Source: an uncultured Gammaproteobacteria bacterium
Lineage (GTDB): Bacteria; Patescibacteriota; Microgenomatia; UBA10105; UBA927
Assembly: GCA_964588145.1 (NCBI GenBank)
Contig: CAZPNL010000003.1
Coordinates: 1 to 47,586, forward strand
Direction: 5' to 3'
Length of the DNA: 47,586 nt
The notes beneath the pieces are model-generated. The model searched no databases. It saw only the letters and a list, made by a program, of their open reading frames with translations, and was not told the DNA's origin. Position numbers and translations under genes: made by a program. Positions 14,588 to 31,282 of the stretch are shown here, one piece after another (position 1 is the stretch's first letter; every line of letters begins with the position of its first letter).

Positions 14588-14600
14588 CATAATTAGCCAA

Positions 14601-14763: not shown

Positions 14764-14851
14764 AAATAAGACGAAAGACTAAAGACGAAAGACAAAAGTT
14801 AGATGAATTGTTTAATTTTATAGCATAATATTTTGCTCGATACGAAGACAA

Positions 14852-15226: not shown

Positions 15227-15346
15227 CTTGTAATATATTTAATTACAAATTGATATATAATTATTTACTTATTGATCTCAAGTTTTCGATATTAAATTTT
15301 GTTTTTTAGTCTTTGGTCATTAGACGTTAGACTTAAGTCTTAAATT

Positions 15347-15428
15347 GCGGACGTGGCGGAATTGGTATACGCGCAGTCTTGAGGAGGCTGTGTCGCAAGG
15401 CATGGAGGTTCAAGTCCTCTCGTCCGCA
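15347..15428 (+). tRNA. tRNA-Leu(GAG)
   Basis: GCGGACG/CGTCCGC acceptor, CAGTC-TTGAGGA-GGCTG anticodon arm. Confidence 0.93.
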
Positions 15429-15471
15429 CAAATGTTTGTGGGTGCGCTAGTTTAAAACTTCATCCCCGAAA

Positions 15472-15531
15472 GAGGTTCACCCCGCTTTATATAATTCAGT
15501 TGAAGCGGGGCAAAAGTCCTCTCGTCCGCAC
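15472..15531 (+). pseudogene. 3'-end copy of tRNA-Leu(GAG) with 35-nt hairpin in T-loop
   Basis: GAGGTTCA + CCCCGCTTTATATAATTCAGTTGAAGCGGGGCAAA + AGTCCTCTCGTCCGCAC. Confidence 0.85.
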
Positions 15532-15718
15532 AAATGGTAGTTTGTGCACTACTATGACGTGTTTGATCTCTGAGGTTTATTTTGTGCATAATTAGAGCTC
15601 AAAGCAAAATACCTCGCACCTTTGATATATACAAACGGGGCACCCCGCTTTATATAATTCAATAGAAGCGGGGCAAATGAGTCGTTTTGTAAACATATAA
15701 AAGTTGAATACATAATTA

Positions 15719-16009
15719 TTGAAATCAATGATATATAATTTAGTATTTCCTATACTGCTATCACTGTTAATGACCTATTTAGGCATCGATTGTATTATCG
15801 AATACTTTCGGGGGAATGGAATTTCAGTTGATTTTAGATGGTATTTATCTCCGTTATGGCTCAGACAGCAATATTATGTTCCAGTTAAATATATAAAAGT
15901 TAAACCAAAAAAGTCTGAAAGAGTTACCTTACTGATTTTGGCAATAGGAAGTTTTTGCATTGCAGCAGTAGGTATATATTCGATTTTCATTCTTATCCAA
16001 AATAAATAA
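15719..16009 (+). CDS. Hypothetical 2-TM membrane protein
   Basis: 96-aa ORF with two hydrophobic segments; no recognised family. Confidence 0.55.
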   Translation: MKSMIYNLVFPILLSLLMTYLGIDCIIEYFRGNGISVDFRWYLSPLWLRQQYYVPVKYIKVKPKKSERVTLLILAIGSFCIAAVGIYSIFILIQNK

Positions 16010-16076
16010 GTAATTCACAAAAGTGTAATTACACACGTTCAACGAGATTTGGTAACTTATTAGAATCACTTTATCT

Positions 16077-16136
16077 GAAGTTCACCCCGCTTTTTATATT
16101 TCAGTTGAAGCGGGGCAAGAGTCCTCTCGTCTGTAC
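16077..16136 (+). pseudogene. Second, more degenerate tRNA-Leu(GAG) 3'-end copy with the same 35-nt hairpin insert
   Basis: GAAGTTCA + CCCCGC...GCGGGGCAAG + AGTCCTCTCGTCTGTAC. Confidence 0.75.
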
Positions 16137-16148
16137 AATTCATTAAAT

Positions 16149-16174
16149 AATCCCGTTAACGACGGGATTTTTTT
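16149..16174 (+). terminator. Candidate intrinsic terminator
   Basis: AATCCCGT-TAACG-ACGGGATT followed by T-run. Confidence 0.5.
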
Positions 16175-16187
16175 GTATAATACCCAT

Positions 16188-16778
16188 ATGGAACTTGCAA
16201 AAACAATCCTAGGATATGTAGCAACGCTCCTTGTATTTATAGGATACATACCATACATCAAGGATGTTGTTGCTGGGAAAACTAAACCCCACATATACAG
16301 CTGGATCCTGTGGGGTCTAGTTACTGCTATCGCTTTCGCACTTCAGTACAGTGCTGGGGCCGGATCTGGTTCATTTGTCACGCTTGCAGCAGCCCTCATG
16401 TGTGGTGTGGTGATTGTGTTATCACTAAAGGCTAAATCCCAAGTCAAAATAGTATTGATAGATACAGTATTTCTCCTGCTGGCCTTTCTCGCAATAGCCC
16501 TATGGCTTGTGGCCAAACAGCCTGTGCTGTCTGCTGTGCTTGTAACAGCCATAGACGTGCTGGGGTTTTTACCTACAGTGCGAAAGTCTTGGCACGAACC
16601 AGAAAGCGAGACTGTATCTTTTTATTTTCTCAATACTGCTCGATTTATGCTCTCAGTGGTCGCACTGCAAAGCTATAGTATCGTCACCACGCTCTATCCA
16701 GTCAGTTGGTTACTCATAAATTTTTGCTTTGGATTTCTGCTTATTGTCAGAAAAAGGATGCTGAGGGAAAAATCGTAG
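16188..16778 (+). CDS. Conserved hypothetical multi-TM membrane protein
   Basis: About 6 TM with internal repeat (YIPYIKD..KTKPH / FLPTVRKSWHEP), PQ-loop-like spacing; start at MELAK. Confidence 0.7.
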   Translation: MELAKTILGYVATLLVFIGYIPYIKDVVAGKTKPHIYSWILWGLVTAIAFALQYSAGAGSGSFVTLAAALMCGVVIVLSLKAKSQVKIVLIDTVFLLLAFLAIALWLVAKQPVLSAVLVTAIDVLGFLPTVRKSWHEPESETVSFYFLNTARFMLSVVALQSYSIVTTLYPVSWLLINFCFGFLLIVRKRMLREKS

Positions 16779-16786
16779 CAAAAAAA

Positions 16787-18118
16787 TTAATTAGTTTCAT
16801 TGCAAGTATACTTATACACATGCCAGGAAAATCTCGTAAAGCAAGCGCCTTCTGGCTTGAATTGTATTTTTCGTTGTCTATCTCCGAGGTATATGTATAA
16901 AGGTGTAGGGAGCTTATCAAGCAATTCTTTTTCAACATCACGATTATTACTGAGCCAAAACTGATTCCACTGATCATAATTCCAATAGACATCGTATTGA
17001 CCAAATCCTGGCGTAATGGATCTTCTTTCAGAATAGCCATACACCCACGGTGTGTATTCGTTGTCCGCCACAAGTATATAGCTATCTGGCTCCGTTGTTT
17101 GCAAAAGTTTAATTTCTTCAAATTCATCTGTCAGTATCAGTGCCTCAGACTGGGTATAGACAAAATATATATTTGAAACAAGTAGTATTGCCAGTACTAT
17201 ATATCTTAAGTGGGTTTTTAATCGCGCGAGTACTGGTGCTGCTAGGAGTATCGCAAAAATATCAATATATGGAATAAATCTTCGTGATAAAAACATGCCT
17301 GACGCCTGTAAGAGGCTGATAAAAAATAATATCCAAATTTCTGGAACTCTTACTATCTTTTTATGAAAATACGAAAACCCTGCAAATACGATATACAAAG
17401 ACATATACACAAGTGACGGTACTATGTCCATAAACGTCCCGCTCTCTGCGGCTGGCATGACTCCACGGATAAAGCTAGGAAGAAATGGCATGATAGTACG
17501 ATCAAAATTTGGCACATAATATAGGAAAAATGCAGAAAGCGCAGATAATGCTGTAACTATATGAAATCTACTCCACATCTTATGATATAAGGGGACAAAG
17601 ATCACTACTACCGCTAGAATCGCTGTCGGCTGATGTAAAAGTATGAGAGCAGGAGTCAGTATCCATGCCCATTTTGACTTTGCCCTGTAGGCTAGTATAA
17701 GCCAAAGGAGGAGCGCTATCGCAAATATATTTTTTAGATAGTAGTACCAATACAGCTTGTATTGAATCACCGATAGACTCAAAAGTGTCACCGCAGAAAT
17801 AGCTGACTTGGCATCATACAGCTTTCGAGCCACAATGTAGACACTAAAAAACAATGAAAGAGATGCGAGTAGAATCAACGGCACCAATATTGATTCTGGA
17901 GTTGCCCAAAATGTCGTGAGTTTGACGACCACTGGTAGAAGTGGGGGATACATGCTGATCACCCAATCTGGAAGGCTTGTATAGCCCAGGAGTGGTACTT
18001 GTGTATAAGACTTAAACAGATATAGATACAGTCCAGGGTCATATCCCAATGGAACTGGTGAGAATAGATAGCTATATATTCTTATAAAAAAGAAATAAAA
18101 GCCTATAAAAAATAACAT
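16787..18118 (-). CDS. Polytopic membrane protein, GT-C-like glycosyltransferase candidate
   Basis: TM1 followed by PLGYDPGLY acidic loop, many TMs, soluble C-terminal domain. Confidence 0.6.
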   Translation of the reverse strand: MLFFIGFYFFFIRIYSYLFSPVPLGYDPGLYLYLFKSYTQVPLLGYTSLPDWVISMYPPLLPVVVKLTTFWATPESILVPLILLASLSLFFSVYIVARKLYDAKSAISAVTLLSLSVIQYKLYWYYYLKNIFAIALLLWLILAYRAKSKWAWILTPALILLHQPTAILAVVVIFVPLYHKMWSRFHIVTALSALSAFFLYYVPNFDRTIMPFLPSFIRGVMPAAESGTFMDIVPSLVYMSLYIVFAGFSYFHKKIVRVPEIWILFFISLLQASGMFLSRRFIPYIDIFAILLAAPVLARLKTHLRYIVLAILLVSNIYFVYTQSEALILTDEFEEIKLLQTTEPDSYILVADNEYTPWVYGYSERRSITPGFGQYDVYWNYDQWNQFWLSNNRDVEKELLDKLPTPLYIYLGDRQRKIQFKPEGACFTRFSWHVYKYTCNETN

Positions 18119-18123
18119 ATTAC

Positions 18124-18918
18124 TTAAAAATCAGGAACGTAAATTACAATACGATTGCTATCAACGTATGAATCAGAAGGAATTGTTTGAACAGGCCCAT
18201 GCTTGTTAATAATAATATCTTGAAGCTCCTCGTAATCAATAAAGTTGGATTCATCTATCGCAATAACCATATGTTCAGAAGCTTTGTATTTTGAAGAAGA
18301 TTGTGACAAATATACATTTTGATAATTATTAGCCCTTAGAAATGTAGCTAGCTCTTGGGCGCTATGAGTATTTTTATTATAAATTATATGAATATATGAT
18401 GCTCTAAGAAAATAATTACTTTGCTTTACATAAATATGTCCGAAATATCCCAACAATACACCTAAAAACAATAAACTTATATACGAAATATATAGCTGAA
18501 ATTTTAAAAGTATTATATGTATCTTTGATATTATAAATAAAATATCATTCAAAATAGAGTCAATAAATATGACCAGTAAAATCATAAAAAATATATCAAA
18601 TCTATGAAAATATACAAAGCCTGCTAATAAAGTAAATATAATTATTCGTATAAAATTATAAGCATATAATATGTATTTGCGATTACTATAAAAATGAGCA
18701 ATCTGTAATTTGTTAATATCAACAGTGGTAACAATAATAGAATATATACATCCAAAAAAAATAACTAAAAATAGGTACATCTCGATACCATTAATGGTGC
18801 CAAGATTGCTCAAGGTTTCTTGTAAAAAAATTCGCAAAAGAAGATATAGCAATATACTATATTGAAATAGTTTAATAAAAAAATAATATAAAACTGATAA
18901 AATATAGGACATAATCAA
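18124..18918 (-). CDS. Hypothetical membrane protein with soluble C-terminal (possibly LytR_C-like) domain
   Basis: 264 aa, very AT-rich coding; domain call is weak. Confidence 0.5.
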   Translation of the reverse strand: MIMSYILSVLYYFFIKLFQYSILLYLLLRIFLQETLSNLGTINGIEMYLFLVIFFGCIYSIIVTTVDINKLQIAHFYSNRKYILYAYNFIRIIIFTLLAGFVYFHRFDIFFMILLVIFIDSILNDILFIISKIHIILLKFQLYISYISLLFLGVLLGYFGHIYVKQSNYFLRASYIHIIYNKNTHSAQELATFLRANNYQNVYLSQSSSKYKASEHMVIAIDESNFIDYEELQDIIINKHGPVQTIPSDSYVDSNRIVIYVPDF

Positions 18919-18931
18919 AATTACCTAATTA

Positions 18932-20833
18932 CTATTTCTTACAATAGCTAGAATGTATATCATCTACTTGAGCACTACTGAGTTTATATATTGCTAAATC
19001 AACTGCCATATTTTGGGACTCACGAGGTACATTATTGCAATAATCCATGGCTGTTTGTGTCAGAACGTGTCCCATTTCAGAAAATCCCTGAGTTTGGGTT
19101 AGCCGAAAAATTTCACATGTTTTAGCTAACCTTGGATAGAGTAAAGCAGTATAATTCACATACTCAGGATTAAATTTTAAAATATTTTTTGAAATCTCAC
19201 TTTTACGATTTGTAATAATATAATAATCTTCGTAATGACAAATATTTGATTTTGGTGTAGATAGGTTTTTACTATTGTACAAACTTCCACCTTGAGATAG
19301 TGATATATTTAACAAATTTTCTAAGGATTTTTGATCTAAGGCTATTGTTTGAAAATTATATAAAAAATACAAAGGCTCACCAATTTTTGCATCACCAATT
19401 GAATTGTAATCGATATAATATACTGATTTGTCATATGATAATTGTTTAGATAATAATTTAGTCTGCTCTATAGACCCAGAATACTCTTTAACTAACAAGG
19501 AAGGGTACGATAATGCAATATTAATGGTAATTATCAACAACAAAATAATATATTTTAAGCTTCCCCTCATATAACCTAAAGCTACTGCTGATAATAAACT
19601 CAACCATGGAAAAATTATATGGTAATACCGACGCAAAAACCAAGGCATATCAAAACTAATTGAAGGATTAAATATATATACAAAATGTGGCAGTATTATA
19701 AAAATAATCATTATAATCAATTTAAACTGATATTTATCACGTTTTATTATTGAAGCCAAACCAATACATGCAAGCAATATATATAGCAGTGCATTATACA
19801 AGTTGAGTATATATAAGCTCATTTGGGGTATATGATACTCAAGCGCATTAGGATCAATTTGTGCGCGACGCAATTGAGAGTAATTAGTAGTACTTAATAC
19901 ACCAGAGTGGACAATATTTGTATAAATGTTGGATATAAATGAACTTAGTTGACTAATCGTAGATGTGTTAAGAATAAATACATAATAATAAAATGGTATA
20001 AATAACACGAATACAATTATAAAGTCATAAATAATTTTGCGGAAATTATTTGATCGTAAAAAAATAAAAATAGTATAAAGCGATGCAAATATAATACCTT
20101 CTATACGAGTCAAAGATAACAAAAGTACAGAAATTACTCCAAACCACTTTATGTGAACTTTATTAGTTTTATAATACTCAACAAGGCATAATAATGAGTA
20201 AAACACTAAACACAATGCTAAATTTTCACTATATGTTTTTCTACTTACCCAGGTAAAGCAATAAGTAGTAGTAAATATAAGAATAGCAATAATGGATGTT
20301 CTTAGCCCAAAAAGTCGAATAGATAATCCATAAAATGAGAATAATCCAAAAATGAGCAATAGTGCTTGTGAAATCGGTACAACATAGTATCCAAATATAG
20401 AGATAAACCATGCTAGCCAAATTGTATAAGCTGGGTAAAAACCTTGCTGTATGCAATCGTTAGAAAGTATGTATCCTGGATACGATAAAATGTTTATATT
20501 AGAAAAACAATATGATCCATGTTTTGAGATTTCTATAGCAGAATTTGCATATACCCCATCATCCCTACCTCCCAAATACACTTCATGAAACTGTACTATT
20601 CCAAAAATTGCAATGGTAATTATATACATAGGCACAAACATATTTATATAATTAATAGATTTAATATTAATTGTAAAAATAACCTTGAATGTGTTTCCTA
20701 TACACATGAAGAATAATAATATCGACAATATACTATTAAATTTTCCCAAAAAGCTTATGACACAAAGAATTAACGCACTAAATAAATATGGAAATACAAT
20801 ATAAAGTAATTTTTGCGTATTTAGATATTGCAT
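18932..20833 (-). CDS. Polytopic membrane protein, GT-C/PMT-like glycosyltransferase candidate
   Basis: GGRDDGVY loop after the N-terminal TMs, TYSENLA and LTRIEG motifs. Confidence 0.65.
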   Translation of the reverse strand: MQYLNTQKLLYIVFPYLFSALILCVISFLGKFNSILSILLFFMCIGNTFKVIFTINIKSINYINMFVPMYIITIAIFGIVQFHEVYLGGRDDGVYANSAIEISKHGSYCFSNINILSYPGYILSNDCIQQGFYPAYTIWLAWFISIFGYYVVPISQALLLIFGLFSFYGLSIRLFGLRTSIIAILIFTTTYCFTWVSRKTYSENLALCLVFYSLLCLVEYYKTNKVHIKWFGVISVLLLSLTRIEGIIFASLYTIFIFLRSNNFRKIIYDFIIVFVLFIPFYYYVFILNTSTISQLSSFISNIYTNIVHSGVLSTTNYSQLRRAQIDPNALEYHIPQMSLYILNLYNALLYILLACIGLASIIKRDKYQFKLIIMIIFIILPHFVYIFNPSISFDMPWFLRRYYHIIFPWLSLLSAVALGYMRGSLKYIILLLIITINIALSYPSLLVKEYSGSIEQTKLLSKQLSYDKSVYYIDYNSIGDAKIGEPLYFLYNFQTIALDQKSLENLLNISLSQGGSLYNSKNLSTPKSNICHYEDYYIITNRKSEISKNILKFNPEYVNYTALLYPRLAKTCEIFRLTQTQGFSEMGHVLTQTAMDYCNNVPRESQNMAVDLAIYKLSSAQVDDIHSSYCKK

Positions 20834-20834
20834 A

Positions 20835-21911
20835 TCAATAAGATTTACTTAAAATCTGAAGATAGCTTTCTATAAATTGATTTTTATCAAATTTTTCAGA
20901 CTGAAAATAATTATCAATAATATTTACTTCTGGTTTACGTAAAATCACAGACTCGATGGCATTATATATATCATTATTATCAAATGGATCTATCATAACT
21001 CCTGCGCTTCCTAAAACCTCAACTATAGAAGAGGTACGAGAAGAAATTACTCTACAGCCATATTGAAGTGCCTCTAAAACGGGAAATCCAAATCCTTCAT
21101 AAATCGAAGGATATATAAAAGCTATTGAATGTAGGTAAAGATTTACTTTAATATGATCTGGAACATAACCTAAATATTCAATATTATTATACAAATTATT
21201 CGCATCAATATAATCAAATATCTCACTATATTTCCAGCCCTTTTTACCCACTAGTACTAGTTTATAGCCAGGATACTTTTGAATTATTTTATGGAAAGCC
21301 TGTAACAATCGAAGAATGTTCTTTCTGGGTTCTATAGTACCGACATATAAAAAATATGGTACTTTTATATATGGAACATCTTGATCATCTATACTTAGCC
21401 TGTCTAAAGAGGGATATATAACACTAATTTTTGAACTAGATATATGAAAATGCTTTATAAGATCATTTTTTGTACTTAAAGATGGAACAACGATTTTAAA
21501 GCAATGATCTAAGCTGAATTTCATGAGAATTTTATAAATTAATACCCGAGTAAAGGGATGAGTATTTGGATAAATAATCCAACTAAGGTCATAAATCACC
21601 ATAATTTCTTTCTGCTTAAAAGGCCAAATATGTGGAGTGCCATCTGTATTTATAATGTAGTCAAAATCCATATGTCGTATACGAAAAGGCAAAGTAAGAC
21701 ACCATGAAATATTTTTAAAAATAGGCATAAAAGATGGCAAAAGCACAAGATTATCCTTATTGAAATCATTTTTAAGATAATCTAAGAATGAAAATTGCCA
21801 ACCCAACTTTGATGACTTATGTAACAAGCCAGAGCATAGCGTTTTCGTATACACGCCTATTCCCGTTAAATTGTCACGAACGCTATCTGTTGTAACAGCA
21901 ATATTTCTCAT
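20835..21911 (-). CDS. Glycosyltransferase family 4
   Basis: YVGTIEPRKN, YPSIYEGFGFPVLEAL. Confidence 0.92.
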   Translation of the reverse strand: MRNIAVTTDSVRDNLTGIGVYTKTLCSGLLHKSSKLGWQFSFLDYLKNDFNKDNLVLLPSFMPIFKNISWCLTLPFRIRHMDFDYIINTDGTPHIWPFKQKEIMVIYDLSWIIYPNTHPFTRVLIYKILMKFSLDHCFKIVVPSLSTKNDLIKHFHISSSKISVIYPSLDRLSIDDQDVPYIKVPYFLYVGTIEPRKNILRLLQAFHKIIQKYPGYKLVLVGKKGWKYSEIFDYIDANNLYNNIEYLGYVPDHIKVNLYLHSIAFIYPSIYEGFGFPVLEALQYGCRVISSRTSSIVEVLGSAGVMIDPFDNNDIYNAIESVILRKPEVNIIDNYFQSEKFDKNQFIESYLQILSKSY

Positions 21912-22858
21912 AAATTTTTGTATAATGATATATAGGGATCTATTGAGGTCTTACTCATTTGAGTGCTTGAAATTTTACGAAAAGAACATTTTCTAATAGA
22001 TTGAATTAATTGCTCAATATTATTATCTTGAGATAAATACGCGTTTTTATAGCCATGCAATGTTTCACCTATAGCACTATTGTTAAAAGTAAATATTGCT
22101 AATCCAAACTTCATTGCATCTCGAAGCTGATAACCATACCCCTCAAACATTGATGGACACAACATACCATCTGACTTCTTATATAATTCTAAAAGTTCAT
22201 CTCGAGTAGATACGACCACTGGGATCATATTTTTAGGAAGCCCATAATATAAATGACGTTTAGCAGTAAAATACAGCACATATCTTTCACCCAGAGATTT
22301 CATTATTGACGAAAGCAAATGAAAACCCTTTCGGTGACTATTTGATCCTACAAACAATAATCTGACACTAGAAGATTTGATACTATTTTCCTTGTATTTA
22401 ATAGGTGAAAGTGGTTCATCTATTGGCTGTATATAAATCGTCTTTTTATTAGGAAAAGAATTTATGAATGACTTTTTTGTGTACTGACTAATTGCAATAA
22501 TTTTCGAAGATATTAGTAGTGATTTTCGAATTTGACTACGTAAAAAATTACTATAGTAAAACTTTTGTAGTACTGTACACCTATGAAAGTAGGTCAGATC
22601 AAATACATTGTGAAATATACTTGAAATAATCTTATTTGTAGTATAAGCAAAAATCCATGCATATTCTATATTTGTATGTACAACATCTGCAGCACGGCCA
22701 TAGCCTGCAATGCGAAGAACATAGGGTACATATTGAAAGACATGATGATGCTTATGAAGCGTTACATTCATGTTTCGATTCTTTAGTGTGTTAAATAAAT
22801 TGATAAAATACACATCGCTACCTGTGCCACAATGAATATAATGTATTTCTATTTTCAT
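21908..22858 (-). CDS. Glycosyltransferase family 4
   Basis: FVGSNSHRKGF, PSMFEGYGYQLRDAM. Confidence 0.85.
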   Translation of the reverse strand: MKIEIHYIHCGTGSDVYFINLFNTLKNRNMNVTLHKHHHVFQYVPYVLRIAGYGRAADVVHTNIEYAWIFAYTTNKIISSIFHNVFDLTYFHRCTVLQKFYYSNFLRSQIRKSLLISSKIIAISQYTKKSFINSFPNKKTIYIQPIDEPLSPIKYKENSIKSSSVRLLFVGSNSHRKGFHLLSSIMKSLGERYVLYFTAKRHLYYGLPKNMIPVVVSTRDELLELYKKSDGMLCPSMFEGYGYQLRDAMKFGLAIFTFNNSAIGETLHGYKNAYLSQDNNIEQLIQSIRKCSFRKISSTQMSKTSIDPYISLYKNL

Positions 22859-24048
22859 ATTTTCTTATAAATCTCTTTATATAATTTTGAGGTTACATTG
22901 AGCGAATATTTTTTGATAAAAACTTTTCTTGTATAGATCTTCTTATGTTGAGGACTTTTTAAGCTTTTGATTATTGCTCTTGCAAGCTGCTGGCTATCTC
23001 CTGGTTTAACAAGCTTTCCAATTCTATTGTTCGAAATTATTGAAGGGATACCACCTGACCGAGACCCTATCAAATTGCAGCCACATAATCCAGCCTCTAT
23101 GAGAGACAAACCGAGTCCTTCACAATCTCCATTTCTCGCAACTATTGAGGGATAGATAAAAAGTTTTGAATTAGAATAATAATTAACCAATTGATTATTA
23201 GGCACACCACCAATAAATGAAATATTCCTCTTTAAATAAAGCTTTGCAATTAATTGTAAAAGATTTTCGTATTCATCTCCCTTACCGATAATGGTAAGCT
23301 TAACCATTGGATAAGTTTTAACAACTTTTGATAATGCCTCTATTAATACAAATAGGCCCTTCTTCTCGACAAGTCTTCCAACATACAGAATATCACTCTT
23401 GTACTTAGTGCAATCTCCAGCATGACATATTTTCTTAAAATGCAGATCGTCTACTCCAATTGGAATAACATCAATTTTTACCTTTGAACCTATGACATTA
23501 AGTACATAATTTTTTAACTGGGGACTAACAGCATTTACTTGACTTGCTTGGTCTAAAATATATTTTTTCAAGTGCATAATTGGAAAATAATTCAAAGTAT
23601 ATACATCAGCACCATGTAAAGTTAAAACATAATGCATGTTGCACATTTTTTTTAACACTAAAGCCACAATCCCTTGTGGTAAAAGCCAGTGGGCGTGTAT
23701 AAACGAAATATTATAAGAACTACAAATATATAAGGCAAAAACTATTTGAGATAATATAAAACCAGGCACCAACAAGGCTCGAAGTACATTATTCTGAATA
23801 GATGAAAGAATTCCGGAAATACCACAGAGAACTTCTAAATTATATGGAATAGCATATATAAATCGAAATATACTCACTTGTTCAGATAATTTTTCATAAA
23901 TACGTGCTTTTTTAAAATGAGGTCCCAAAAGAATAACTTTATAATCATCAGATACTTTGTGTGCTAAATTGACAATAAAATTAGGTAAAGTATCATGTTG
24001 CCATCTTGGCAAAGTCGATGTAAGCATAAGGACAGTAGGTTGCAGCAT
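22855..24048 (-). CDS. Glycosyltransferase family 4
   Basis: HAHWLLPQG, YVGRLVEKKG, EGLGLSLIEA. Confidence 0.92.
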   Translation of the reverse strand: MLQPTVLMLTSTLPRWQHDTLPNFIVNLAHKVSDDYKVILLGPHFKKARIYEKLSEQVSIFRFIYAIPYNLEVLCGISGILSSIQNNVLRALLVPGFILSQIVFALYICSSYNISFIHAHWLLPQGIVALVLKKMCNMHYVLTLHGADVYTLNYFPIMHLKKYILDQASQVNAVSPQLKNYVLNVIGSKVKIDVIPIGVDDLHFKKICHAGDCTKYKSDILYVGRLVEKKGLFVLIEALSKVVKTYPMVKLTIIGKGDEYENLLQLIAKLYLKRNISFIGGVPNNQLVNYYSNSKLFIYPSIVARNGDCEGLGLSLIEAGLCGCNLIGSRSGGIPSIISNNRIGKLVKPGDSQQLARAIIKSLKSPQHKKIYTRKVFIKKYSLNVTSKLYKEIYKKI

Positions 24049-24060
24049 ATGTGTAATAGT

Positions 24061-25095
24061 TTATGTATTAGATATATGAGGTATATAGTGTTTTCTAAGA
24101 AATTGCTGAGAACTTTTTATGTCTGCTTTTTTAAACGATTTACGCAAAATTGGCCTATAAAAAATTTGCTTTTGAAAATACAACACCTGCTCAATAAGCT
24201 TTCGATTTGCAGCTATCAAGTCTGACACAAGACCAAGCACCATAACCTGAAATCCCGCAAGAAAAAGTACAGCCCCTATGACAAGCGATTGTATGTGTCC
24301 TGACCCATCACCAACAGATAGATAGATGAGGAATCTCATAAACAGCAATAAGCCAAATCCTAATAGTATCGAGCCCAGATAAAAAAATGTTTTTAACGGC
24401 TCATACATAGCAAACACACGTACCATAGTAGAGCCACTCATTCGTATATGCTGAAAAATGTTCTTAAAAAGTCGAGATTCGCGAGTCTTGGCATTGGTCG
24501 TTACCGGCACAGAAACTATTTTTAGCCTTTTTTTTCCAGCTTGTATGATGCTTTCAGTACAGTAAGAATATTCGGTAGTTATATTAAGTTGAAGTGCTGC
24601 CTCTCGAGAATATGCACGAAAACCTGAAACTGCATCAGGAAGTTCTATTCCAGATAGTTTAGCAACTGCCGCAGAGCCAACTTTTTGTAATAGCTTTTTT
24701 AATGGAGAAAAATGCGCTATGGTATCAGTTTGTCTATTTGCTACTACTATATCCGCGTGATTGTTTAAGATAGGTTCAATAAGTCTCCCTATGTCAGCTT
24801 GTGGATATTGATTGTCACCGTCAGTATTGACGATAATATCAGCGCCATGCTCTAGTGCTGCCTGGATGCCATCTGAAAAGGATTTTGCAAGTCCACGAGT
24901 TTTAAGATGTTTAATCACTTGTATAGCGCCATATTTGAGAGCGATATCAGCTGTCTGATCACTGGAGCCATCATCAATGATAATCGTTTCAATATTGCTA
25001 ACACCTTTTATAGATCTAGGAATATTACTGAGCACCAAAGGTAGCGTGGCCGACTCATTAAGACATGGGATAATAATTATAAGCTTTCTAGTCAT
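24061..25095 (-). CDS. Glycosyltransferase family 2 (DPM-synthase-like) with C-terminal TMs
   Basis: IPCLNE, IDDGSSD, NTDGDNQY, SGFRAY; start trimmed to MTRKLIII. Confidence 0.92.
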   Translation of the reverse strand: MTRKLIIIIPCLNESATLPLVLSNIPRSIKGVSNIETIIIDDGSSDQTADIALKYGAIQVIKHLKTRGLAKSFSDGIQAALEHGADIIVNTDGDNQYPQADIGRLIEPILNNHADIVVANRQTDTIAHFSPLKKLLQKVGSAAVAKLSGIELPDAVSGFRAYSREAALQLNITTEYSYCTESIIQAGKKRLKIVSVPVTTNAKTRESRLFKNIFQHIRMSGSTMVRVFAMYEPLKTFFYLGSILLGFGLLLFMRFLIYLSVGDGSGHIQSLVIGAVLFLAGFQVMVLGLVSDLIAANRKLIEQVLYFQKQIFYRPILRKSFKKADIKSSQQFLRKHYIPHISNT

Positions 25096-25224
25096 ATGAA
25101 AAAGTATATAGTAGTATACTACTATAAGACATATACAGCAAGTATAGAGCATATGGACTTGCTTTTATACATAAAAGTGCTATCATCTGAGTTGCCCTGT
25201 AGTATATTTAATTAATATAAAATT

Positions 25225-25842
25225 ATGAAAAATTCTCTAAAAGTAGCCCTTGTAAGTACAATCCTTTTATCTTTGCCTTGTTCTTCTGTGTTGGCAGGGT
25301 ATGGATCAGCACCATCTCCCGCACGTGCCCCAGTGTGTGGTCAATCCAAACCAGAAACCCCCGAATTTACATTTGTAAAAAATAGTGGCGCAGATCAGAT
25401 TGAGTTGGGATGGAACCATGTAGACAGAGCCACATCCTGGACCATCGCCTATGGTCGTCAAAAAGGGAAATATGTGTATGGTATGAGTGATTTTGGAGAT
25501 TCCAGTAGCAAATCAGTGACTATCGGTATGCTTCCTGCAGGAAGCTACTACATAGTGCTACGAGCAAATCATGATTGTATGCCAGGTGCATTTTCCACGG
25601 AGAGACAAATAGTAGTTTCAGGTGGAGGTGTCGTCCAAACAGTGTATGCAAATGAAGATAATTATGTGCCTGAAGTAGTTTATGTACCATCAGGCACCCC
25701 TGCGCCTACGCAAAGCATCACCCCTACACCAAAGGTGACTGTATATCCACAACCCTCGCCAACTGTTATGGAAGTGCAGCCTAAAAGATCATGGCTCAGT
25801 AATTTTTTCCATAACCTGGTAGATTTCATCTTTGGTAAATAA
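25225..25842 (+). CDS. Exported protein with fibronectin-III-like domain and Pro/Thr-rich tail
   Basis: Signal peptide; IELGW...WTIAYG...VTIGMLPAGSYYIVLRA; PTP repeats. Confidence 0.65.
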   Translation: MKNSLKVALVSTILLSLPCSSVLAGYGSAPSPARAPVCGQSKPETPEFTFVKNSGADQIELGWNHVDRATSWTIAYGRQKGKYVYGMSDFGDSSSKSVTIGMLPAGSYYIVLRANHDCMPGAFSTERQIVVSGGGVVQTVYANEDNYVPEVVYVPSGTPAPTQSITPTPKVTVYPQPSPTVMEVQPKRSWLSNFFHNLVDFIFGK

Positions 25843-25855
25843 AACCGGGATAAAT

Positions 25856-27397
25856 TTAAGGCTTACAAGAAAAAACTTCCATGCGTGGCTCATCTCTGAG
25901 GAATGCGGATCGCATGCTCTCATCAAATCCTTCATATTTATACGCAGGATAGCGGACCATAGGATGCTTATATGAGTACAAAACATTTTTATTGCACTTC
26001 ATTAATCTTTGTCCGTAGTATGGGTATAGATACTCAATGTTTTGTGCATATACAACGTTTTGCCCAAGTGTAAGCATCATAGATTGATCATCAATAGATT
26101 CTTTTATCGTATGTACATATGTTGGTCGAAGCAGATTGCTTTTTTGTTGCATCGCAGCTACAGATTCTGGATATATTGTATAAAAAAGTTGCATATAACT
26201 TTTGAAAAAAGAAAAACTGGCAACAACGATAAATAATAGGGTCAATATAATATTTTTATGCTTGATTTTTCGCAGTGCTGTTTCAAATCCAATCAGTGAG
26301 AATAGGAAAAGTATAAGAAGCAATGGACGCAGTGTGCGGCCGTAAAGTACAGTTATATGGAGCAAATGACTTACGATCTCCAACACAATAAAACTAATAA
26401 ATAGATAAATAAAAAGAAAGTTGTTTTGTCCTCGCCTCCAGTAACAAAAGTGTAAAATGCACCCAACTAAAAGAAATGCGAGAAATACAACACCATCTGT
26501 ATGCATGACGAAATCAGTTAAAAACTGTCCCAGAAATACAAAATTTCCTTGGGTGACTGTTTCTGAAAGGCGAGACTGTGTAACCAGATATGACTCAGCG
26601 CCAACAAGTCTACTAGTCAGCTCAAAAAATAAGAGAGGCACCAGAAATCCTACTACAAACGTCAATGTGAAGGAAGATATGCTTTTAAGAAATTTTTTGA
26701 AAGGAAATTTATATATATCTACTAACACCACTATAAAAAATGTCAGTCCCAATGCAGCAATATAGTAACTATGTCCTGGGTAGACTGCTTGTGATAAGCC
26801 CGAGTATAAACCAGCAAGCAGGACATTTTTTTTATTGGTTGCTACAATAACTGCAAGCATCAGAAATATCAAGCTACTATCATATGGCAACATGTGTCGG
26901 ACATATGAAAGCGACAATGAACATAAACTTATGACAAATATTGCGCTTAAAGCAAATGCTTGTGATGCTTGGGATCTTAAAAACCTATAGATGACCAATA
27001 GGAGTAATATATTTATGCCGTAATTCCATATATTACCAAAAAATGCTTGCGGTACAAAGTCAGCTTGATAGGGCGGAATCAGTTGAGTAATTTGCCCAGT
27101 ATTATGATCTAAAAAAGCTGGTACTGCGTGGGTTATGCCAAAACCAGGCCGAGCAGCCAGAGTAAAAATTGATTGTAAATAAGGGAGAATGGAATTCTGA
27201 GACAACGATTTTTCGGCGGCAAGCGATAAGTAGTGATATCTGATTTCATCTGGAAAAAAATAGACAGAGTCAGTACGAAAAAGCAAAATTCTACTTAAAA
27301 TAATAAGCAAAAATACTACTATTGTGGGTGTCTGATGTTTAACTATAACTGAGCGTAGAAAATGCAACTTCCACATGCATAAAGTATACCATCTCAA
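25856..27397 (-). CDS. Polytopic membrane protein, GT-C-like candidate
   Basis: FFPDEIRY loop after TM1; multiple TMs; true start may be slightly downstream. Confidence 0.6.
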   Translation of the reverse strand: MRWYTLCMWKLHFLRSVIVKHQTPTIVVFLLIILSRILLFRTDSVYFFPDEIRYHYLSLAAEKSLSQNSILPYLQSIFTLAARPGFGITHAVPAFLDHNTGQITQLIPPYQADFVPQAFFGNIWNYGINILLLLVIYRFLRSQASQAFALSAIFVISLCSLSLSYVRHMLPYDSSLIFLMLAVIVATNKKNVLLAGLYSGLSQAVYPGHSYYIAALGLTFFIVVLVDIYKFPFKKFLKSISSFTLTFVVGFLVPLLFFELTSRLVGAESYLVTQSRLSETVTQGNFVFLGQFLTDFVMHTDGVVFLAFLLVGCILHFCYWRRGQNNFLFIYLFISFIVLEIVSHLLHITVLYGRTLRPLLLILFLFSLIGFETALRKIKHKNIILTLLFIVVASFSFFKSYMQLFYTIYPESVAAMQQKSNLLRPTYVHTIKESIDDQSMMLTLGQNVVYAQNIEYLYPYYGQRLMKCNKNVLYSYKHPMVRYPAYKYEGFDESMRSAFLRDEPRMEVFSCKP

Positions 27398-27411
27398 TCT
27401 CTCATCAAATT

Positions 27412-27420
27412 TGATATAAT
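27412..27420 (+). promoter_or_regulatory. Extended -10 promoter (TGnTATAAT) for tRNA-Val/Phe cluster
   Basis: TGATATAAT upstream of the tRNA-Val relic and gene. Confidence 0.5.
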
Positions 27421-27439
27421 ATCACTCTGTAGGAATAAA

Positions 27440-27492
27440 GACGATTAGCTCAGATGTTTACCCCGAAAGCGTAAGCTTTTTGGGGGTAGAGC
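27440..27492 (+). pseudogene. 5'-half copy of tRNA-Val with 29-nt hairpin in D-loop
   Basis: GACGATTAGCTCAGATG + TTTACCCCGAAAGCGTAAGCTTTTTGGGG + GTAGAGC. Confidence 0.8.
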
Positions 27493-27519
27493 AAAAAAAT
27501 TAACATACAAGCATGATAA

Positions 27520-27592
27520 GGACGATTAGCTCAGCTGGTAGAGCGCTTCATTTACACTGAAGATGTCGGGGGTTCGAGTCCCTCATCGTCCA
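27520..27592 (+). tRNA. tRNA-Val(TAC)
   Basis: GGACGAT/ATCGTCC acceptor, CTTCA-TTTACAC-TGAAG. Confidence 0.93.
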
Positions 27593-27660
27593 CAAAATAA
27601 GCCTAAAGTCTTAAGACGAAAGTCGATAGACCTGTGTTAAAATATAAAGTGTTCTAACTG

Positions 27661-27733
27661 GCCGAGCTGGCCGAGATAGTCAAGGCGCATGTCTGAAAAA
27701 CATGTTATCTGGGTGCAAATCCTAGGCTCGGCA
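27661..27733 (+). tRNA. tRNA-Phe(GAA)
   Basis: GCCGAGC/GCTCGGC acceptor, CATGT-CTGAAAA-ACATG; T-loop variant TGCAAAT. Confidence 0.88.
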
Positions 27734-27825
27734 CTCAAAAATTTCGTTTTATAGAGAAATTTTTAAGTGTAAACACCAAAGTAAAGCTTCTAGTTGTAGC
27801 TGTTTGAAAGATTTATACGCATATA

Positions 27826-27949
27826 TAGACGTTCTGGTGGTACCTTTAGTGGTGCAGGATGATGTTTCGTCATCCCGGTGCAGATGTGTGCCGTTATAGT
27901 CAGAGTAATTGATAAATTTTTACAAAATTCATCAATTGCAGAACGTCTA
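27826..27949 (+). ncRNA. Retron ncRNA (msr-msd) candidate
   Basis: Perfect 11-bp inverted repeats TAGACGTTCTG (27826-36) / CAGAACGTCTA (27939-49); G at 27837 right after the stem; three short stem-loops (27840-55, 27857-75, 27876-93); long AT-rich hairpin 27905-27939. Confidence 0.85.
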
Positions 27950-27952
27950 CAC

Positions 27953-28849
27953 ATGGGTATGAATTTCTTTCAAAAACTATTTGACGGTGGACGTGGTTCG
28001 GACATATTGGCACAAAAATTTGGATTCAATCCAGAAATCCTTTCCACTTGGGAACAGGGAAATCCAAATGGTTGTGATTACACTACCTTTCAAATACCCA
28101 AACGTCGCAAAGGTGCATATCGCACTATCACGGCACCAAATCCACCACTCAAGGCATTACAACGCCAAGTGTATAGAAATGTGCTTAAACGACTCCCGGT
28201 ACACCCAGCGTGCACAGGGTTTTCTCCAAAAAAATCAACAGTAGATGCAGCCATGCCCCATGTAGGCAAAGAAGTGGTTATACATATGGATCTCAAAGAT
28301 TTTTTTGATCACATCACCTATGATCGTATTTATAATTATTTTCGTGCGATAGGGTGGGGGAAATATGTCTCTCATATCCTTACAAATATCCTCACAAAAG
28401 ATGGCAAAGCACCACAAGGTGCGCCTACTAGTCCTATGATCTCTAATCTTATCGCATACAAGCTAGATGCTCGCATAAATAGCCTCATGGAGACATTTGA
28501 AGGCTCTTATACACGCTATGCTGATGACATTACGTTATCATTTAGATCAAGCAATATGCATTTCAAAAGCGCACTCCATATAGTATGTACCATTATTAAC
28601 GAAGAAGGTTTCAAAATCCAAAAAGCCAAAAAAATCAAAATCATGCGGCCACATGACAGGCAGGAAGTGCTATCAATCATCGTCAATAAAAAACTCAATG
28701 CGCCGAGAAAAATGCGTAGACTCATACGTGCCATGGAGCATGCTAATAGAATTGGAAAACTCCCATCACATGAATATGCAAAACTGGATGGCTACAAATC
28801 GTACATAAATATGATAAATATGGGACGAGCCAAACCTTCATTACAATGA
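27953..28849 (+). CDS. Retron-type reverse transcriptase (298 aa)
   Basis: IPK...RTITAP, LKALQR, MDLKDFF, PQGAPTSP, YTRYADD; start trimmed to ATG 27953 (or 27959), directly after the ncRNA repeat. Confidence 0.92.
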   Translation: MGMNFFQKLFDGGRGSDILAQKFGFNPEILSTWEQGNPNGCDYTTFQIPKRRKGAYRTITAPNPPLKALQRQVYRNVLKRLPVHPACTGFSPKKSTVDAAMPHVGKEVVIHMDLKDFFDHITYDRIYNYFRAIGWGKYVSHILTNILTKDGKAPQGAPTSPMISNLIAYKLDARINSLMETFEGSYTRYADDITLSFRSSNMHFKSALHIVCTIINEEGFKIQKAKKIKIMRPHDRQEVLSIIVNKKLNAPRKMRRLIRAMEHANRIGKLPSHEYAKLDGYKSYINMINMGRAKPSLQ

Positions 28850-28852
28850 TAC

Positions 28853-28881
28853 TTGAGCGTGTCTCTAAAAAAATATATAAT
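28853..28881 (+). promoter_or_regulatory. Sigma70-type promoter for tRNA-Gly(GCC)
   Basis: TTGAGC-17 nt-TATAAT. Confidence 0.6.
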
Positions 28882-28890
28882 GAAATAAGT

Positions 28891-28962
<72 letters not shown>

Positions 28963-28980
28963 CAAACAATTGTTAGTAGG

Positions 28981-30954
28981 CTAAAGTTTCTTACCCATTG
29001 GATAAATAATCTCGTAAATACTAACTTCGGAGTTTGAAAAAACTCTACTAGCGATGGTACTATTTTCAATAATCGGATAATTTGAATTTGAATTGAGATA
29101 AATATATTTAATTTTATTTGCCATCGCCAATCGTACATACGTATCTGGTTGAGCAGACTGAAAAAATTGAAAATAGACCCTGCTTCGTTCTGAAGCTTGA
29201 GGATACCCGTGAGCCTCAGTACTAAATCTTTGTGAATAATACATGGGATGTTGAGAAAACAATCCTACGTATGCTTCTACTTCATCGAGCTTATTTATGG
29301 GATCTACAATAGTTAAATAATTGATATTGGCATAATTCTTTAAATAATGTAATGCTTCAAATTCGAGTGAACTTATATGATTTGGCCGTATAAATATATA
29401 CTCATTCCAATTTACTATATGTGAATATATGCGATTGAGAGTAAATAGACCAATAATAATATAAAACCCAAAACGCAATAAAAAAGGCTTTTGTTTCATG
29501 CCGTAACTAAAAGCCGAAGCGCAATACGGCAAAACTGCATACATTGCAATAAGGATGAATACGGAACTATGATCACCTCCGCTATCTTGTAAAAAGGTAG
29601 TGCCAATAAAAATAGAAATAAGTATAGATGGAATCAGAAAAATATGAAATTCAATAGGAAATTTACCCATAGAATACCTCGTTTGAAATATCCAAAAAGA
29701 GCGTAACAAAAAATATGTAACCAAAAAGATACAGTAGAGCAATGGACCAATGACACTCCCAAGCATAAAAAAGCCAAGGTGAAAATCTACTTTTCCAAAA
29801 CGAGTTACATTATGCACTGACTGTTCCAATATTTGACTTATCTGTGGGTTAAGTTGAGACGAAATCTTCTCTAAGAGGGTTTTCCCGTGCCAAAAACCAG
29901 CAAAATGTATACCTCCAGACCCATGATTGGTAGGCAAATAGAGCGCCAAAGATAAGACTATAGTCAAAATCAATGTTGGAATTCTAACAAACTTTTTTTG
30001 CAAGACAAACCAATACCCTATAAATGCCACCCCCATGCAAAGAAATATACCCGTATGCGCTTTTATGCCCACAGAAGTTGCAATAACAATAATAATGAGA
30101 AATGAAACTATACGAGTGGGCGCTCGTAACCAAAGTACAAGTAGAGATAGTGCTGAAAATATCTGAGGAAGAGACAAGGAGGTAGTAAGATTTGCCCCTA
30201 CGCTGGGATAATTTTGACTAAAATATGCAAAAAATAAAATCCATACTTTGTATGAGTTATTTAGTTGTAATATATTAGCCAAAAGTAAAATATGTGCCCC
30301 ATACATAATCGTCATAAATGGGACGAAATAGTGTGTCAAAGTGTATATAAAAGGTAAATCAAATACGCGTACAAGATCTGCAATTACGAGGTGAGAAAAA
30401 TAGTGATAATTTTGTATATATATGCCAGACATACCAGGAGTAAAGGGTGGCATCTGTTTGAGCAATTGATACAAATGACCCAACTCTCCTACCTGGTTAT
30501 ACGTGGCAAAAGACAATGATCCATCGCGTGTTTGTACTCCCACAAACACTATGACAGTCTCTATGAGAGTAGCTAGTAGTATCAATCCCAACATTAGTAA
30601 TGATACTCTCGTAAAGCGAAATGAAAACGTTGGTAATAATGTTTTACAGCGTATTAACCAGAATATGACACATGCCAAAACATATACATAACTCAAATAT
30701 CTCACTTGAAGCATTCCGAATATATACCCTTGGAGAATCCAGAGTGCTAGTCCAGCGCTGGTTGAAAGTGTTATATTTTGCCACCAGCCAAGTTTGAGCT
30801 TGTGGACAAGTATATTACCAGGGATAGTCATCGAAAAGAGAATAGCAAACCAAAACAGTAGAAAACCCCACCAGAATCTAAAGTCAGAATATGTAAGCAG
30901 CTCAATGGGATAGTGCATGAGGATTTTTTTTGAGGCAGTGTATTGTATACCCAA
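28981..30954 (-). CDS. Large polytopic membrane protein (GT-C-like candidate)
   Basis: 657 aa, many TMs, periplasmic loop PPFTPG...NYHYFSH, soluble C-terminal domain. Confidence 0.6.
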   Translation of the reverse strand: MGIQYTASKKILMHYPIELLTYSDFRFWWGFLLFWFAILFSMTIPGNILVHKLKLGWWQNITLSTSAGLALWILQGYIFGMLQVRYLSYVYVLACVIFWLIRCKTLLPTFSFRFTRVSLLMLGLILLATLIETVIVFVGVQTRDGSLSFATYNQVGELGHLYQLLKQMPPFTPGMSGIYIQNYHYFSHLVIADLVRVFDLPFIYTLTHYFVPFMTIMYGAHILLLANILQLNNSYKVWILFFAYFSQNYPSVGANLTTSLSLPQIFSALSLLVLWLRAPTRIVSFLIIIVIATSVGIKAHTGIFLCMGVAFIGYWFVLQKKFVRIPTLILTIVLSLALYLPTNHGSGGIHFAGFWHGKTLLEKISSQLNPQISQILEQSVHNVTRFGKVDFHLGFFMLGSVIGPLLYCIFLVTYFLLRSFWIFQTRYSMGKFPIEFHIFLIPSILISIFIGTTFLQDSGGDHSSVFILIAMYAVLPYCASAFSYGMKQKPFLLRFGFYIIIGLFTLNRIYSHIVNWNEYIFIRPNHISSLEFEALHYLKNYANINYLTIVDPINKLDEVEAYVGLFSQHPMYYSQRFSTEAHGYPQASERSRVYFQFFQSAQPDTYVRLAMANKIKYIYLNSNSNYPIIENSTIASRVFSNSEVSIYEIIYPMGKKL

Positions 30955-31103
30955 AAAATCATAAATATATATGATTTTTTGAGTATAGACCCATCTAATC
31001 AGCTTTGCTACCTCTTAGAGTTGCAAACCTGAGTAAGATGGGTTTACAATAACATATACCTCTTTATGCCCGAGCTCACAAGTAGGCAATTGAGGCTATA
31101 ATT

Positions 31104-31172
31104 TGCGGGGTCGTTCAATGGTAGGTCCCTTATATTCGCATTCGCTCATATAAGGGATTAAAAACACTTGCC
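31104..31172 (+). pseudogene. 5'-half relic of a tRNA-Gln with hairpin insert after the D-loop
   Basis: TGCGGGGTCGTTCAATGGTAGG + TCCCTTATAT...ATATAAGGGA insert + ACACTTGCC. Confidence 0.75.
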
Positions 31173-31193
31173 ATCTTTGGTCATGTGTGGCGC

Positions 31194-31265
31194 TGCGAGG
31201 TCGTTCAATGGTAGGACACTTGCCTTTGGAGCAAGGTATTCTTGGTTCGAATCCAAGCCTCGCAG
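31194..31265 (+). tRNA. tRNA-Gln(TTG)
   Basis: TGCGAGG/CCTCGCA acceptor, CTTGC-CTTTGGA-GCAAG. Confidence 0.93.
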
Positions 31266-31282
31266 CGCTGCACAGGACAAAT

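Follow-up and report, generated by a model that had tools for sequence, protein, structure and literature searches.

Retrons are viewed as three-part, toxin-antitoxin-like defense systems, and the role of those that lack an effector has been open since Mestre et al. 2020. Stand-alone cassettes made up of an msr-msd noncoding RNA (ncRNA) and a reverse transcriptase (RT), referred to as “orphan retrons”, have already been described for a branch of clade 2 (Retron-Eco5/Ec107-like) and for clade 11 (PMC7736814). Toro 2026 distinguished clade11-A and clade11-B, with divergent Planctomycetota candidates as low-confidence clade11-B (PMC13712802). Here, we discuss a locus on a 47,586-nt contig (CAZPNL010000003.1 of assembly GCA_964588145.1; “the window” below means this whole contig), where a retron cassette was read at positions 27,826-28,849. 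We consider it likely that the segment at ~27823-28860 is a self-contained, stand-alone retron, comprising an ncRNA (27826-27949) and an RT gene (27953-28849), and that it belongs to an untyped, compact, effector-less family. Judged from its sequence, the retron is real and probably active. Because orphan retrons are an already recognized, though unstudied, kind, the find is not categorically new. The locus is a very clean case, with ~1.04 kb of ncRNA and RT alone in an otherwise short tRNA spacer, and with relatives that have no retrons.

An earlier note on this DNA had described the a1/a2, branching-G, msr, msd layout of retrons, and this layout proved to be conserved and covarying across relatives of the RT. 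The 11-bp perfect inverted repeat from which the note started (27826-36/27939-49) is present in the sequence (Table 1) and, at 85% complementarity, grows to 26 nt. The ~17-bp extension proposed there, with two mismatches (27820-36/27939-55), does cover the ATG at 27953 with which the RT begins, and the G at 27837, directly 3′ of the stem, is both present and invariant. Refolding of 27815-27960 recovers the three stem-loops and the 35-nt hairpin that the note had drawn (27840-55, 27857-75, 27876-93, and 27905-39). The folding energy is −55.8 kcal/mol, compared with −32.2 ± 3.4 kcal/mol for 200 dinucleotide shuffles (z = −7.0), and 0/200 shuffles folded as well. Retron ncRNAs hold one to three msr hairpins together with an msd hairpin; the window ncRNA, which is 125 nt long, has three msr hairpins and an msd hairpin. 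G27938, the G opposing the branching G, is nearly invariant in the alignment of relatives, as are G112, C113, and A114 of alignment A6, and G27837 and G27938 match the pair described for retron ncRNAs as “two opposing G residues” (PMC7736814). The hairpin of stem-loop 3 is present in relatives in a variable register (72% paired in the majority register). The msd apex is conserved in the family with the consensus YUGCR, the window apex being UUACA, and the msd stem is just 5-7 bp long in most family members, below the 10-50 bp described for the msd stems of retrons (PMC7736814). Searches of Rfam, both at the gathering score and with E values up to 10, matched no retron or other family over the ncRNA, and returned tRNAs only.

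The ncRNA is shared by a broad set of loci. A covariance model of the msr part, R1, was run against 170 loci from genome and metagenome collections and gave 47 strong matches (E 1e-5 to 1e-19), all on the + strand and just upstream of an RT. A complementary a1 starting with CA(A/G) lies at a nearly constant distance in ~42 of the 47 loci, the gap between the msr model and a1 being 26-31 nt in most and 43-51 nt in the subgroup of the window. Read 5′ to 3′, the relatives have an a2 whose last letters are YTG, then G-YGG and a variable hairpin. The conserved hairpin, GGNYGRUGUUUCGYCRNCC, comes next and is followed by a third hairpin, a short msd hairpin, a G, and an a1 from CA(A/G). Stem-loop 2 of the window corresponds to the conserved hairpin and is likely an RT-binding element. 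R1 replaced a regular expression built on stem-loop 2, which had itself superseded another expression, GGTGG...ATAGT, by which the ncRNA was found in loci L004 and L006 only.

Covariation was counted in an alignment of 25 ncRNA sequences, with slid partners and 500 shuffles as controls. Three results emerged: (i) 90.9% of cells are paired, as against 34-45% in the slid controls; (ii) changes on both sides occur in 23 of 31 pairs; (iii) the covariation score is 0.565, as against 0.09-0.12 for slid and 0.235 for shuffled alignments, and 0/500 shuffles reached 0.565. For the a1/a2 helix, both-side changes occur in 8 of 10 pairs, a count that is biased toward pairing and somewhat circular because a1 positions were picked partly by complementarity. 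The a1 calls themselves are taken as real because their spacing is constant, a G precedes them, and MAFFT aligns them on GCAAG. In the covariation check suggested in the earlier note, homologs are not missing the inverted repeats, and the upstream a1/a2 and stems covary. Because 46 other loci repeat the architecture with compensatory changes, the inverted repeat in the window is not due to chance.

The protein encoded just 3′ of the repeat is, as the note had it, a YADD RT: the open reading frame (ORF) at 27953-28849 carries YADD and matches Pfam RVT_1 with an E value of 5e-26. Its identity as a retron RT was borne out, since the best profile matches are all retron models and the closest structures are retron RTs. 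With PADLOC, 74 retron RT models matched, the best being RT_XIII (275 bits) and RT_II-A (247 bits). The NCBIfam retron St85 model (NF038233) gave 220.5 bits, below its curated cut-off of 235. The best sequence match in the PDB is the RT of Ec86 (E 1e-38; 37% identity over 230 aa). From 26 relatives, AlphaFold2 produced a model that is confident along its full length (mean predicted local distance difference test score, 86.7). In a Foldseek search of the PDB with this model, the top 18 matches are retron RTs, with template modeling (TM) scores of 0.64-0.78, ahead of group II intron RTs; the RTs of Ec86, Eco2, Eco7, and Ec83 score 0.75-0.78. The profile, PDB-sequence, and Foldseek matches together argue for a complete retron RT fold without an extra domain. 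Alternative gene starts (a 323-aa ORF from GTG 27878 and a 321-aa database call, P0001) both reach back into the ncRNA, and the start at 27953 is supported because the family N-terminus, MGxF..., is conserved. In the alignment of the window RT with 25 relatives (26 sequences), all 57 of the 57 invariant family columns are kept in the window RT, including the catalytic DL..FF, QGAP.SP, and YTRYADD, the last of these (residues 186-192) being invariant in the family.

These matches bear directly on whether the RT could belong to another class (group II intron, diversity-generating retroelement (DGR), or the Abi/UG/DRT groups), with a merely fortuitous repeat upstream. Matches to a group II maturase (58.9 bits), Drt2, and Drt3a do exist, all of them weak and far below cut-offs, whereas retron models score 4-5 times higher and 18 retron RTs outrank any group II RT in Foldseek. 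No intron domains, DGR template/variable repeats, or Rfam match were found, and the a1/a2 and branching-G layout, with its covariation, is specific to retrons. A non-retron RT class is effectively refuted, and we assign it a negligible probability.

Among described retrons, Retron-Eco1 (Ec86, type II-A) is the closest solved structure (TM 0.77). Like the window, it has its ncRNA immediately before the RT gene and shows the a1/a2 and branching-G layout, and its msr hairpin, GGAUGUUGUUUCGGCAUCC, is nearly identical to stem-loop 2 of the window, GGAUGAUGUUUCGUCAUCC. The Ec86 msr was recovered from E. coli genomes with 100% identity, next to an RT and an annotated retron effector; when R1 was matched to Ec86, stem-loop 2 alone was hit, with 14 bits. 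Unlike the window, Ec86 lies in a prophage next to a gene annotated as a retron St85 family effector protein, which we take to be NDT-like, and its RT, unlike that of the window, retains VTG and NAxxH. The Ec86 multicopy single-stranded DNA (msDNA) is 86 nt, with a long stem. In functional retrons, the priming G is preceded by a UUA consensus (PMC10849725), where the window family instead has YUG. With a score below the cut-off and no adjacent effector gene, the locus falls outside type II-A/St85.

Type XIII retrons (RT clade 10) are Mx162-like. RT_XIII is the best PADLOC model for the window RT, and upstream ncRNAs of type XIII carry the same hairpin, GAUGUUUCGUC, which we observed upstream of five genuine type XIII RTs (L030, L036, L039, L053, and L063, at about 5120-5460). 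The hairpin common to the window family, type XIII, and Ec86 looks like an ancient RT-recognition element spread across several retron clades, to judge by its sequence. Genuine type XIII RTs, however, have 470-520 aa and a ~140-aa N-terminal extension, which the window RT lacks; the window RT matches RT_XIII at profile positions 141-415 only, with half the member-level score. For L030, L036, and others, the ncRNA lies 600-900 nt upstream of the RT match, and a type II-A gene order was considered and rejected: the RTs in question belong to type XIII, whose long N-terminal extension accounts for the gap. Type XIII has been linked to WH-SWIM and ARM/HEAT-repeat genes (PMC7736814), whereas the window has no WH-SWIM or ARM partner genes nearby and is not placed in type XIII.

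The orphan retrons of clades 2 and 11 resemble the window in having two parts, with the ncRNA immediately upstream of a retron RT, and in lacking a recurrent accessory gene in ordinary chromosomal contexts. Compared by PADLOC profiles only, the window RT scores 231 bits with RT_other, 225 bits with RT_outgroup, and 195 bits with RT_Ec107-like; we infer that RT_other and RT_outgroup represent clade 11. The low-confidence clade11-B Planctomycetota RTs of Toro might overlap a sister subclade of the window family. A stand-alone RT on a plasmid of Dietzia (Mycobacteriales) falls outside the window family in the tree, and its upstream region is not matched by R1. Recently recognized metagenomic lineages of compact retron RTs are like the window in having no fused effector, and two relatives of the window RT (P0003 and P0015) match RT-Protease_XI models best, with 257-259 bits. 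Unlike the window family, those lineages come from Bacteroidota/Bacillota and have recurrent WYL or DnaB_C genes within ±2 genes.

The window family was also examined by phylogeny. The nearest proteins among 5.8 billion share 48% identity with the window RT. RTs of the family have ~275-320 aa and ncRNAs of ~105-135 nt, and its members come from Planctomycetota, Chloroflexota, Acidobacteriota, Verrucomicrobiota, Armatimonadota, and other phyla. In a FastTree phylogeny, 47 of 47 R1-positive loci fall in one RT clade of 53 rows (support 99), the six R1-negative members of which have contig-end cuts or divergent sequence. With IQ-TREE (LG+C20, 54 rows), the family forms one side of a branch (Shimodaira-Hasegawa-like approximate likelihood ratio test, 96), apart from type XIII, type III-A, and the Dietzia plasmid RT. 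Members of described types and the Dietzia RT score highly with their own best PADLOC models: 527-636 bits with RT_XIII for the type XIII members L049 and L030, 469 bits with RT_III-A for the type III-A member L024, and 494 and 472 bits with RT_other and RT_outgroup for the Dietzia RT. The window family reaches at most 305 bits with any model, and its scores for XIII, XI, XII, II-A, X, and “other” are nearly tied, so current type-specific models miss it at member level. We therefore describe the family as apparently untyped, when judged on PADLOC and NCBIfam models, and as compact and coherent in both RT and RNA. Three members have additional protein sequence. At L014:5908-7110, the family RT is extended at its C-terminus by ~100 aa, in which two transmembrane helices are predicted. 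The family RTs at L118:114-1871 and L139:83-1822, of ~580 aa, have an N-terminal transmembrane segment and a conserved C-terminal domain of ~90 aa (..YKRTFSFKLP..GRTV.G..SDGTA..). These extra domains may be fused effectors.

No such domain, and no conserved neighbor, accompanies the window RT, which sets the cassette apart from the tripartite defense retrons of types I-XIII. When the ORFs lying up to 5 kb to either side of the RT at 22 family loci were compared all-against-all by BLASTP, no common protein family emerged; the sole clusters were antisense ORFs over the conserved ncRNA. On the contigs of the closest homologs, including contigs of 65-170 kb, the RT has only unrelated housekeeping genes as neighbors. 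In the window, the flanking ORFs encode a glycosyltransferase and polytopic membrane proteins and have no PADLOC match, a result that covers flanking ORFs only, no systematic effector scan of the whole genome having been made. A 657-aa membrane protein by tRNA-Gly was considered as an effector and rejected: its gene is on the other strand, neither PADLOC nor Pfam gives a match, and homologs occur in 11 of 40 relatives without a retron. As read from sequence, the cassette thus appears to be stand-alone and effector-less, and not a canonical tripartite defense retron.

The same data speak to whether this is a normal tripartite defense retron with its effector in trans or on a missing contig. Mestre et al. 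2020 raised this possibility for orphan retrons (PMC7736814), the host assembly (genome, ~1.5 Mb) is 88.8% complete in 139 contigs, and the domains fused to a few members (L014, L118, and L139) could be effectors. However, no gene family recurs near the RT at the 22 loci, which span many phyla and include the 65-170-kb contigs; the inserted segment holds ncRNA and RT only; and most genomes with orphan retrons have no homologs of known retron partners (PMC7736814). We consider an effector in trans very unlikely.

Table 1. Positions of the retron elements and neighboring tRNA genes in the window
Feature	Position	Strand	Remarks
tRNA-Val	27520-27593	+	Upstream of the cassette; ARAGORN, Rfam
tRNA-Phe(GAA), left neighbor	27661-27734	+	ARAGORN; Rfam tRNA, 58 bits
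Ancestral Phe-Gly spacer, left part	27735-27822	+	Conserved GTGTAAACAC and TTTA(T)ACGCA; by-eye comparison with 83-nt spacers of L184, L186, and L174
a2, 5′ arm of terminal inverted repeat	27826-27836	+	TAGACGTTCTG; 11-bp core, weaker pairing back to 27820 or 27811
Predicted branching (priming) G	27837	+	25/25 aligned ncRNAs, motif YTG-G-YGG; role proposed from retron biochemistry (PMC7736814)
msr stem-loop 1, GTACC/GGTGC	27840-27855	+	RNA fold; compensatory changes in 5/5 pairs
msr stem-loop 2, GGAUGAUGUUUCGUCAUCC	27857-27875	+	99.5% of cells paired; 3/8 pairs covary, 4 invariant
Stem-loop 3, CGGTGCA/TGTGCCG	27876-27893	+	RNA fold; msr or msd membership either way possible
11-nt linker, semi-conserved [AG]A[UG]AGU	27894-27904	+	ncRNA alignments A5, A6
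msd hairpin, 14-15-bp stem, apex UUACA	27905-27938	+	RNA fold; inner 3/3 pairs covary
a1, 3′ arm of terminal inverted repeat	27939-27949	+	CAGAACGTCTA; extended pairing to 27955 over RT start codon
Retron-type RT, 298 aa	27953-28849	+	YADD intact; region X AAMPH; region Y VLS
Right junction and spacer	28850-28890	+	Promoter-like TTGAGC-17-TATAAT at 28853-81; AT-rich end resembles ancestral spacer end
tRNA-Gly(GCC), right neighbor	28891-28963	+	ARAGORN, Rfam

Besides the partial circularity of the a1/a2 counts, several observations weigh against the reading of the locus as a working, effector-less retron. Region X, where NAxxH is expected, is AAMPH in the window RT, compared with NARPH in the family and NATPH in Ec86. 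Region Y, where VTG is expected, is VLS (RQEVLSIIVN), compared with VTG or ATG in 24 of the 25 other relatives and VTG in Ec86; the family as a whole does have the VTG feature. Of the 102 family columns that are strongly conserved, 14 differ in the window RT, and only one of the 26 sequences deviates at more. The validated, msDNA-producing retrons Ec48 and Mx65 have substitutions at the N of NAxxH; for VTG, the known variants in the same paper are ITG and VHG, and no validated precedent for G-to-S in the triplet was found (PMC6868368). A scan for consensus promoters upstream of a2 found no convincing sigma-70 promoter. With the assembly only 89% complete, an effector may also be encoded elsewhere.

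The altered region Y and X signatures and the deviations at conserved columns raise the possibility that the cassette is a decaying or inactive relic: a retron acquired horizontally, its effector lost or never present, whose RT has drifted and which no longer makes msDNA. The long terminal branch of the window RT (0.64-0.82) and the single copy in a genome whose relatives have none fit that account. The ORF is, however, full length, with no frameshift or stop and with every invariant column kept, and its AlphaFold2 model is confident from end to end. The ncRNA likewise keeps all its elements, including the perfect 11-bp a1/a2, the invariant G, a fully paired stem-loop 2 that fits the consensus, and the opposing G. 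The cassette equals the genome in GC content (0.40 and 0.39, respectively), which implies long residence with the frame maintained, and the N of NAxxH is also substituted in the msDNA-producing retrons Ec48 and Mx65 (PMC6868368). We regard a relic as unlikely. The retron interpretation of the earlier note is supported, with refinements that come from sequence analysis: no effector appears to be present, the family appears to be untyped and compact, the VTG and NAxxH signatures are altered, and the ~45-nt msDNA and the co-transcription with the tRNAs proposed in the note are predictions.

The insertion site also bears on the stand-alone state of the retron. The earlier note had placed the cassette inside a tRNA cluster, on the same strand as tRNA-Val/Phe; tRNAs indeed lie on both sides, all on the + strand. 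In genomes of the same family, the tRNA genes are tightly packed in the order Leu(CAG)-Leu(GAG)-Val-Phe-Gly(GCC)-Gln. Between Phe and Gly, four of these genomes have a spacer of 20-83 nt and three others one of 300-720 nt; in the window it measures 1156 nt. The spacer motifs GTGTAAACAC and TTTACGCA can be traced to ~27822, and the AT-rich spacer end lies just before tRNA-Gly. Because the ancestral spacer is recognizable on both sides, the insert (~27823-28860, ~1.04 kb) consists of ncRNA and RT only. No direct repeats or att-like duplications flank it, just an ATATATA heptamer near both junctions in AT-rich DNA, and no integrase is present. Adjacency to tRNAs was considered as a family trait and rejected, with a tRNA nearby in only 3 of 46 other loci. 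The note's description of the genome as CPR-like (candidate phyla radiation) is consistent at most with the data, the sampled genomes of the family, class, and phylum all being 0.6-1.8 Mb.

The retron is rare in this lineage. A match was found in 0 of 42 same-family and same-order genomes, and in a sample of the phylum only 3 of 400 genomes had any match, at 29-32% identity. With R1, the window's own copy alone scores highly, and the RT is the only one of its kind in its genome. The nearest relatives are on contigs as AT-rich as the window. This rarity, together with a cassette GC content equal to that of the genome, indicates that the cassette was acquired horizontally and not recently, insofar as sequence composition and distribution can tell.

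How the stand-alone retron might work can be outlined. RNA structure, RT class, and the stand-alone inserted state come from the analyses above; the other steps follow retron biochemistry (PMC7736814, PMC12475279). The ncRNA and RT would be co-transcribed on the + strand, from their own weak promoter or by read-through from tRNA-Val/Phe. Homologs have TATAAT boxes ~8-20 nt upstream of a2; the window has only a weak −10-like TTTATA there, at 27812-17, so that read-through from the tRNAs is possible. Pairing of a2 and a1, a structure backed by covariation, sets G27837 opposite G27938. The RT would dock on stem-loop 2, as its Ec86-like hairpin suggests, priming would take place on the 2′-OH of G27837, and the msd hairpin would be copied leftwards from ~27937. 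Copying would end at the AUAGU linker, either before it or within it, or else once stem-loop 3 has been copied; the linker (27894-27904) is a candidate region for termination or for the hybrid. The resulting branched msDNA would measure ~35-45 nt, ~60 nt at most, and carry a 14-bp hairpin. This size is predicted because such a hairpin forms when the reverse complement of 27895-27938 is folded as DNA (z = −4.6). Because the start codon of the RT falls within the extended a1 pairing, translation of the RT may also be limited by the terminal stem. Our working guess is that the effector-less RT-msDNA particle functions on its own, serving as a sensor or decoy, or else works together with a non-adjacent partner.

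A broader proposal, which we hold as doubtful, is that the family represents an effector-independent class of retrons. The ~1-kb ncRNA and RT would then be the whole functional and transferable unit, with the RT and a mini-msDNA (YUGCR apex) as its output. This particle could serve as a decoy or sensor for phage nucleic-acid-targeting proteins, or its role could lie outside defense, and the cassette could insert itself into intergenic spacers such as those of tRNA clusters. The family is large and multi-phylum, has an unusually short template (~30-45 nt), and lies outside current type-specific models; it offers a defined, minimal model for effector-less retron biology. Its very small scaffold of RT and ncRNA (~290 aa, 105-135 nt) is of possible interest for retron-based genome editing.

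Other features of the family and locus were observed along the way. In GC-rich members, a strong extra GC hairpin lies between a1 and the RT start (L006:5958-5990, L008:2350-2395, L009:1013-1045, and L010:5812-5842), whereas the AT-rich subgroup of the window has none. This hairpin may act as an attenuator or terminator, or by sequestration of the ribosome-binding site. A resemblance between the a1 region at 27932-27948 (TCAATTGCAGAACGTCT) and the D-arm of tRNA-Gly at 28902-28918 (TCAGTGGTAGAACGTCT), matching at 14 of 17 positions, was judged to be at chance level for a 1.7-kb region.

The tRNA cluster itself has been split by several insertions in the window (14502-31266), with ~12 kb between Leu(GAG) and Val. 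The gene for the 657-aa membrane protein (28981-30954, − strand) lies between tRNA-Gly and tRNA-Gln; in L180 and L184 the cluster is ~1 kb. In three other genera of the family, the Phe-Gly spacer has unrelated insertions of 300-720 nt (L180:1202-1504, L182:1193-1501, and L181:1578-2297), the one in L181 holding an ORF, and because of these the spacer looks like a recurrent insertion hot spot. The promoter-like sequence at 28853-28881, a good sigma-70-like match located between the RT stop codon and tRNA-Gly, could give tRNA-Gly its own transcription after the insertion severed it from the upstream cluster. Within the Phe-Gly spacer, an inverted repeat shared across genera, GTGTAAACAC ... GCGTTTACGC, is preceded by an AAAATTT hairpin (window 27768-27822; L184:1576-1658; and, on the − strand, L186:1417-1499 and L174:704-786); this repeat may serve the tRNA operon in processing or as a terminator. 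Finally, a 5′ relic of tRNA-Val lies within 27435-27490, 81 nt upstream of the intact tRNA-Val. Its ATAAAGACGATTAGCTCAGATG corresponds to the first bases of tRNA-Val plus a 4-nt leader, at 91% identity, and is followed by a CCCC..GGGG hairpin.

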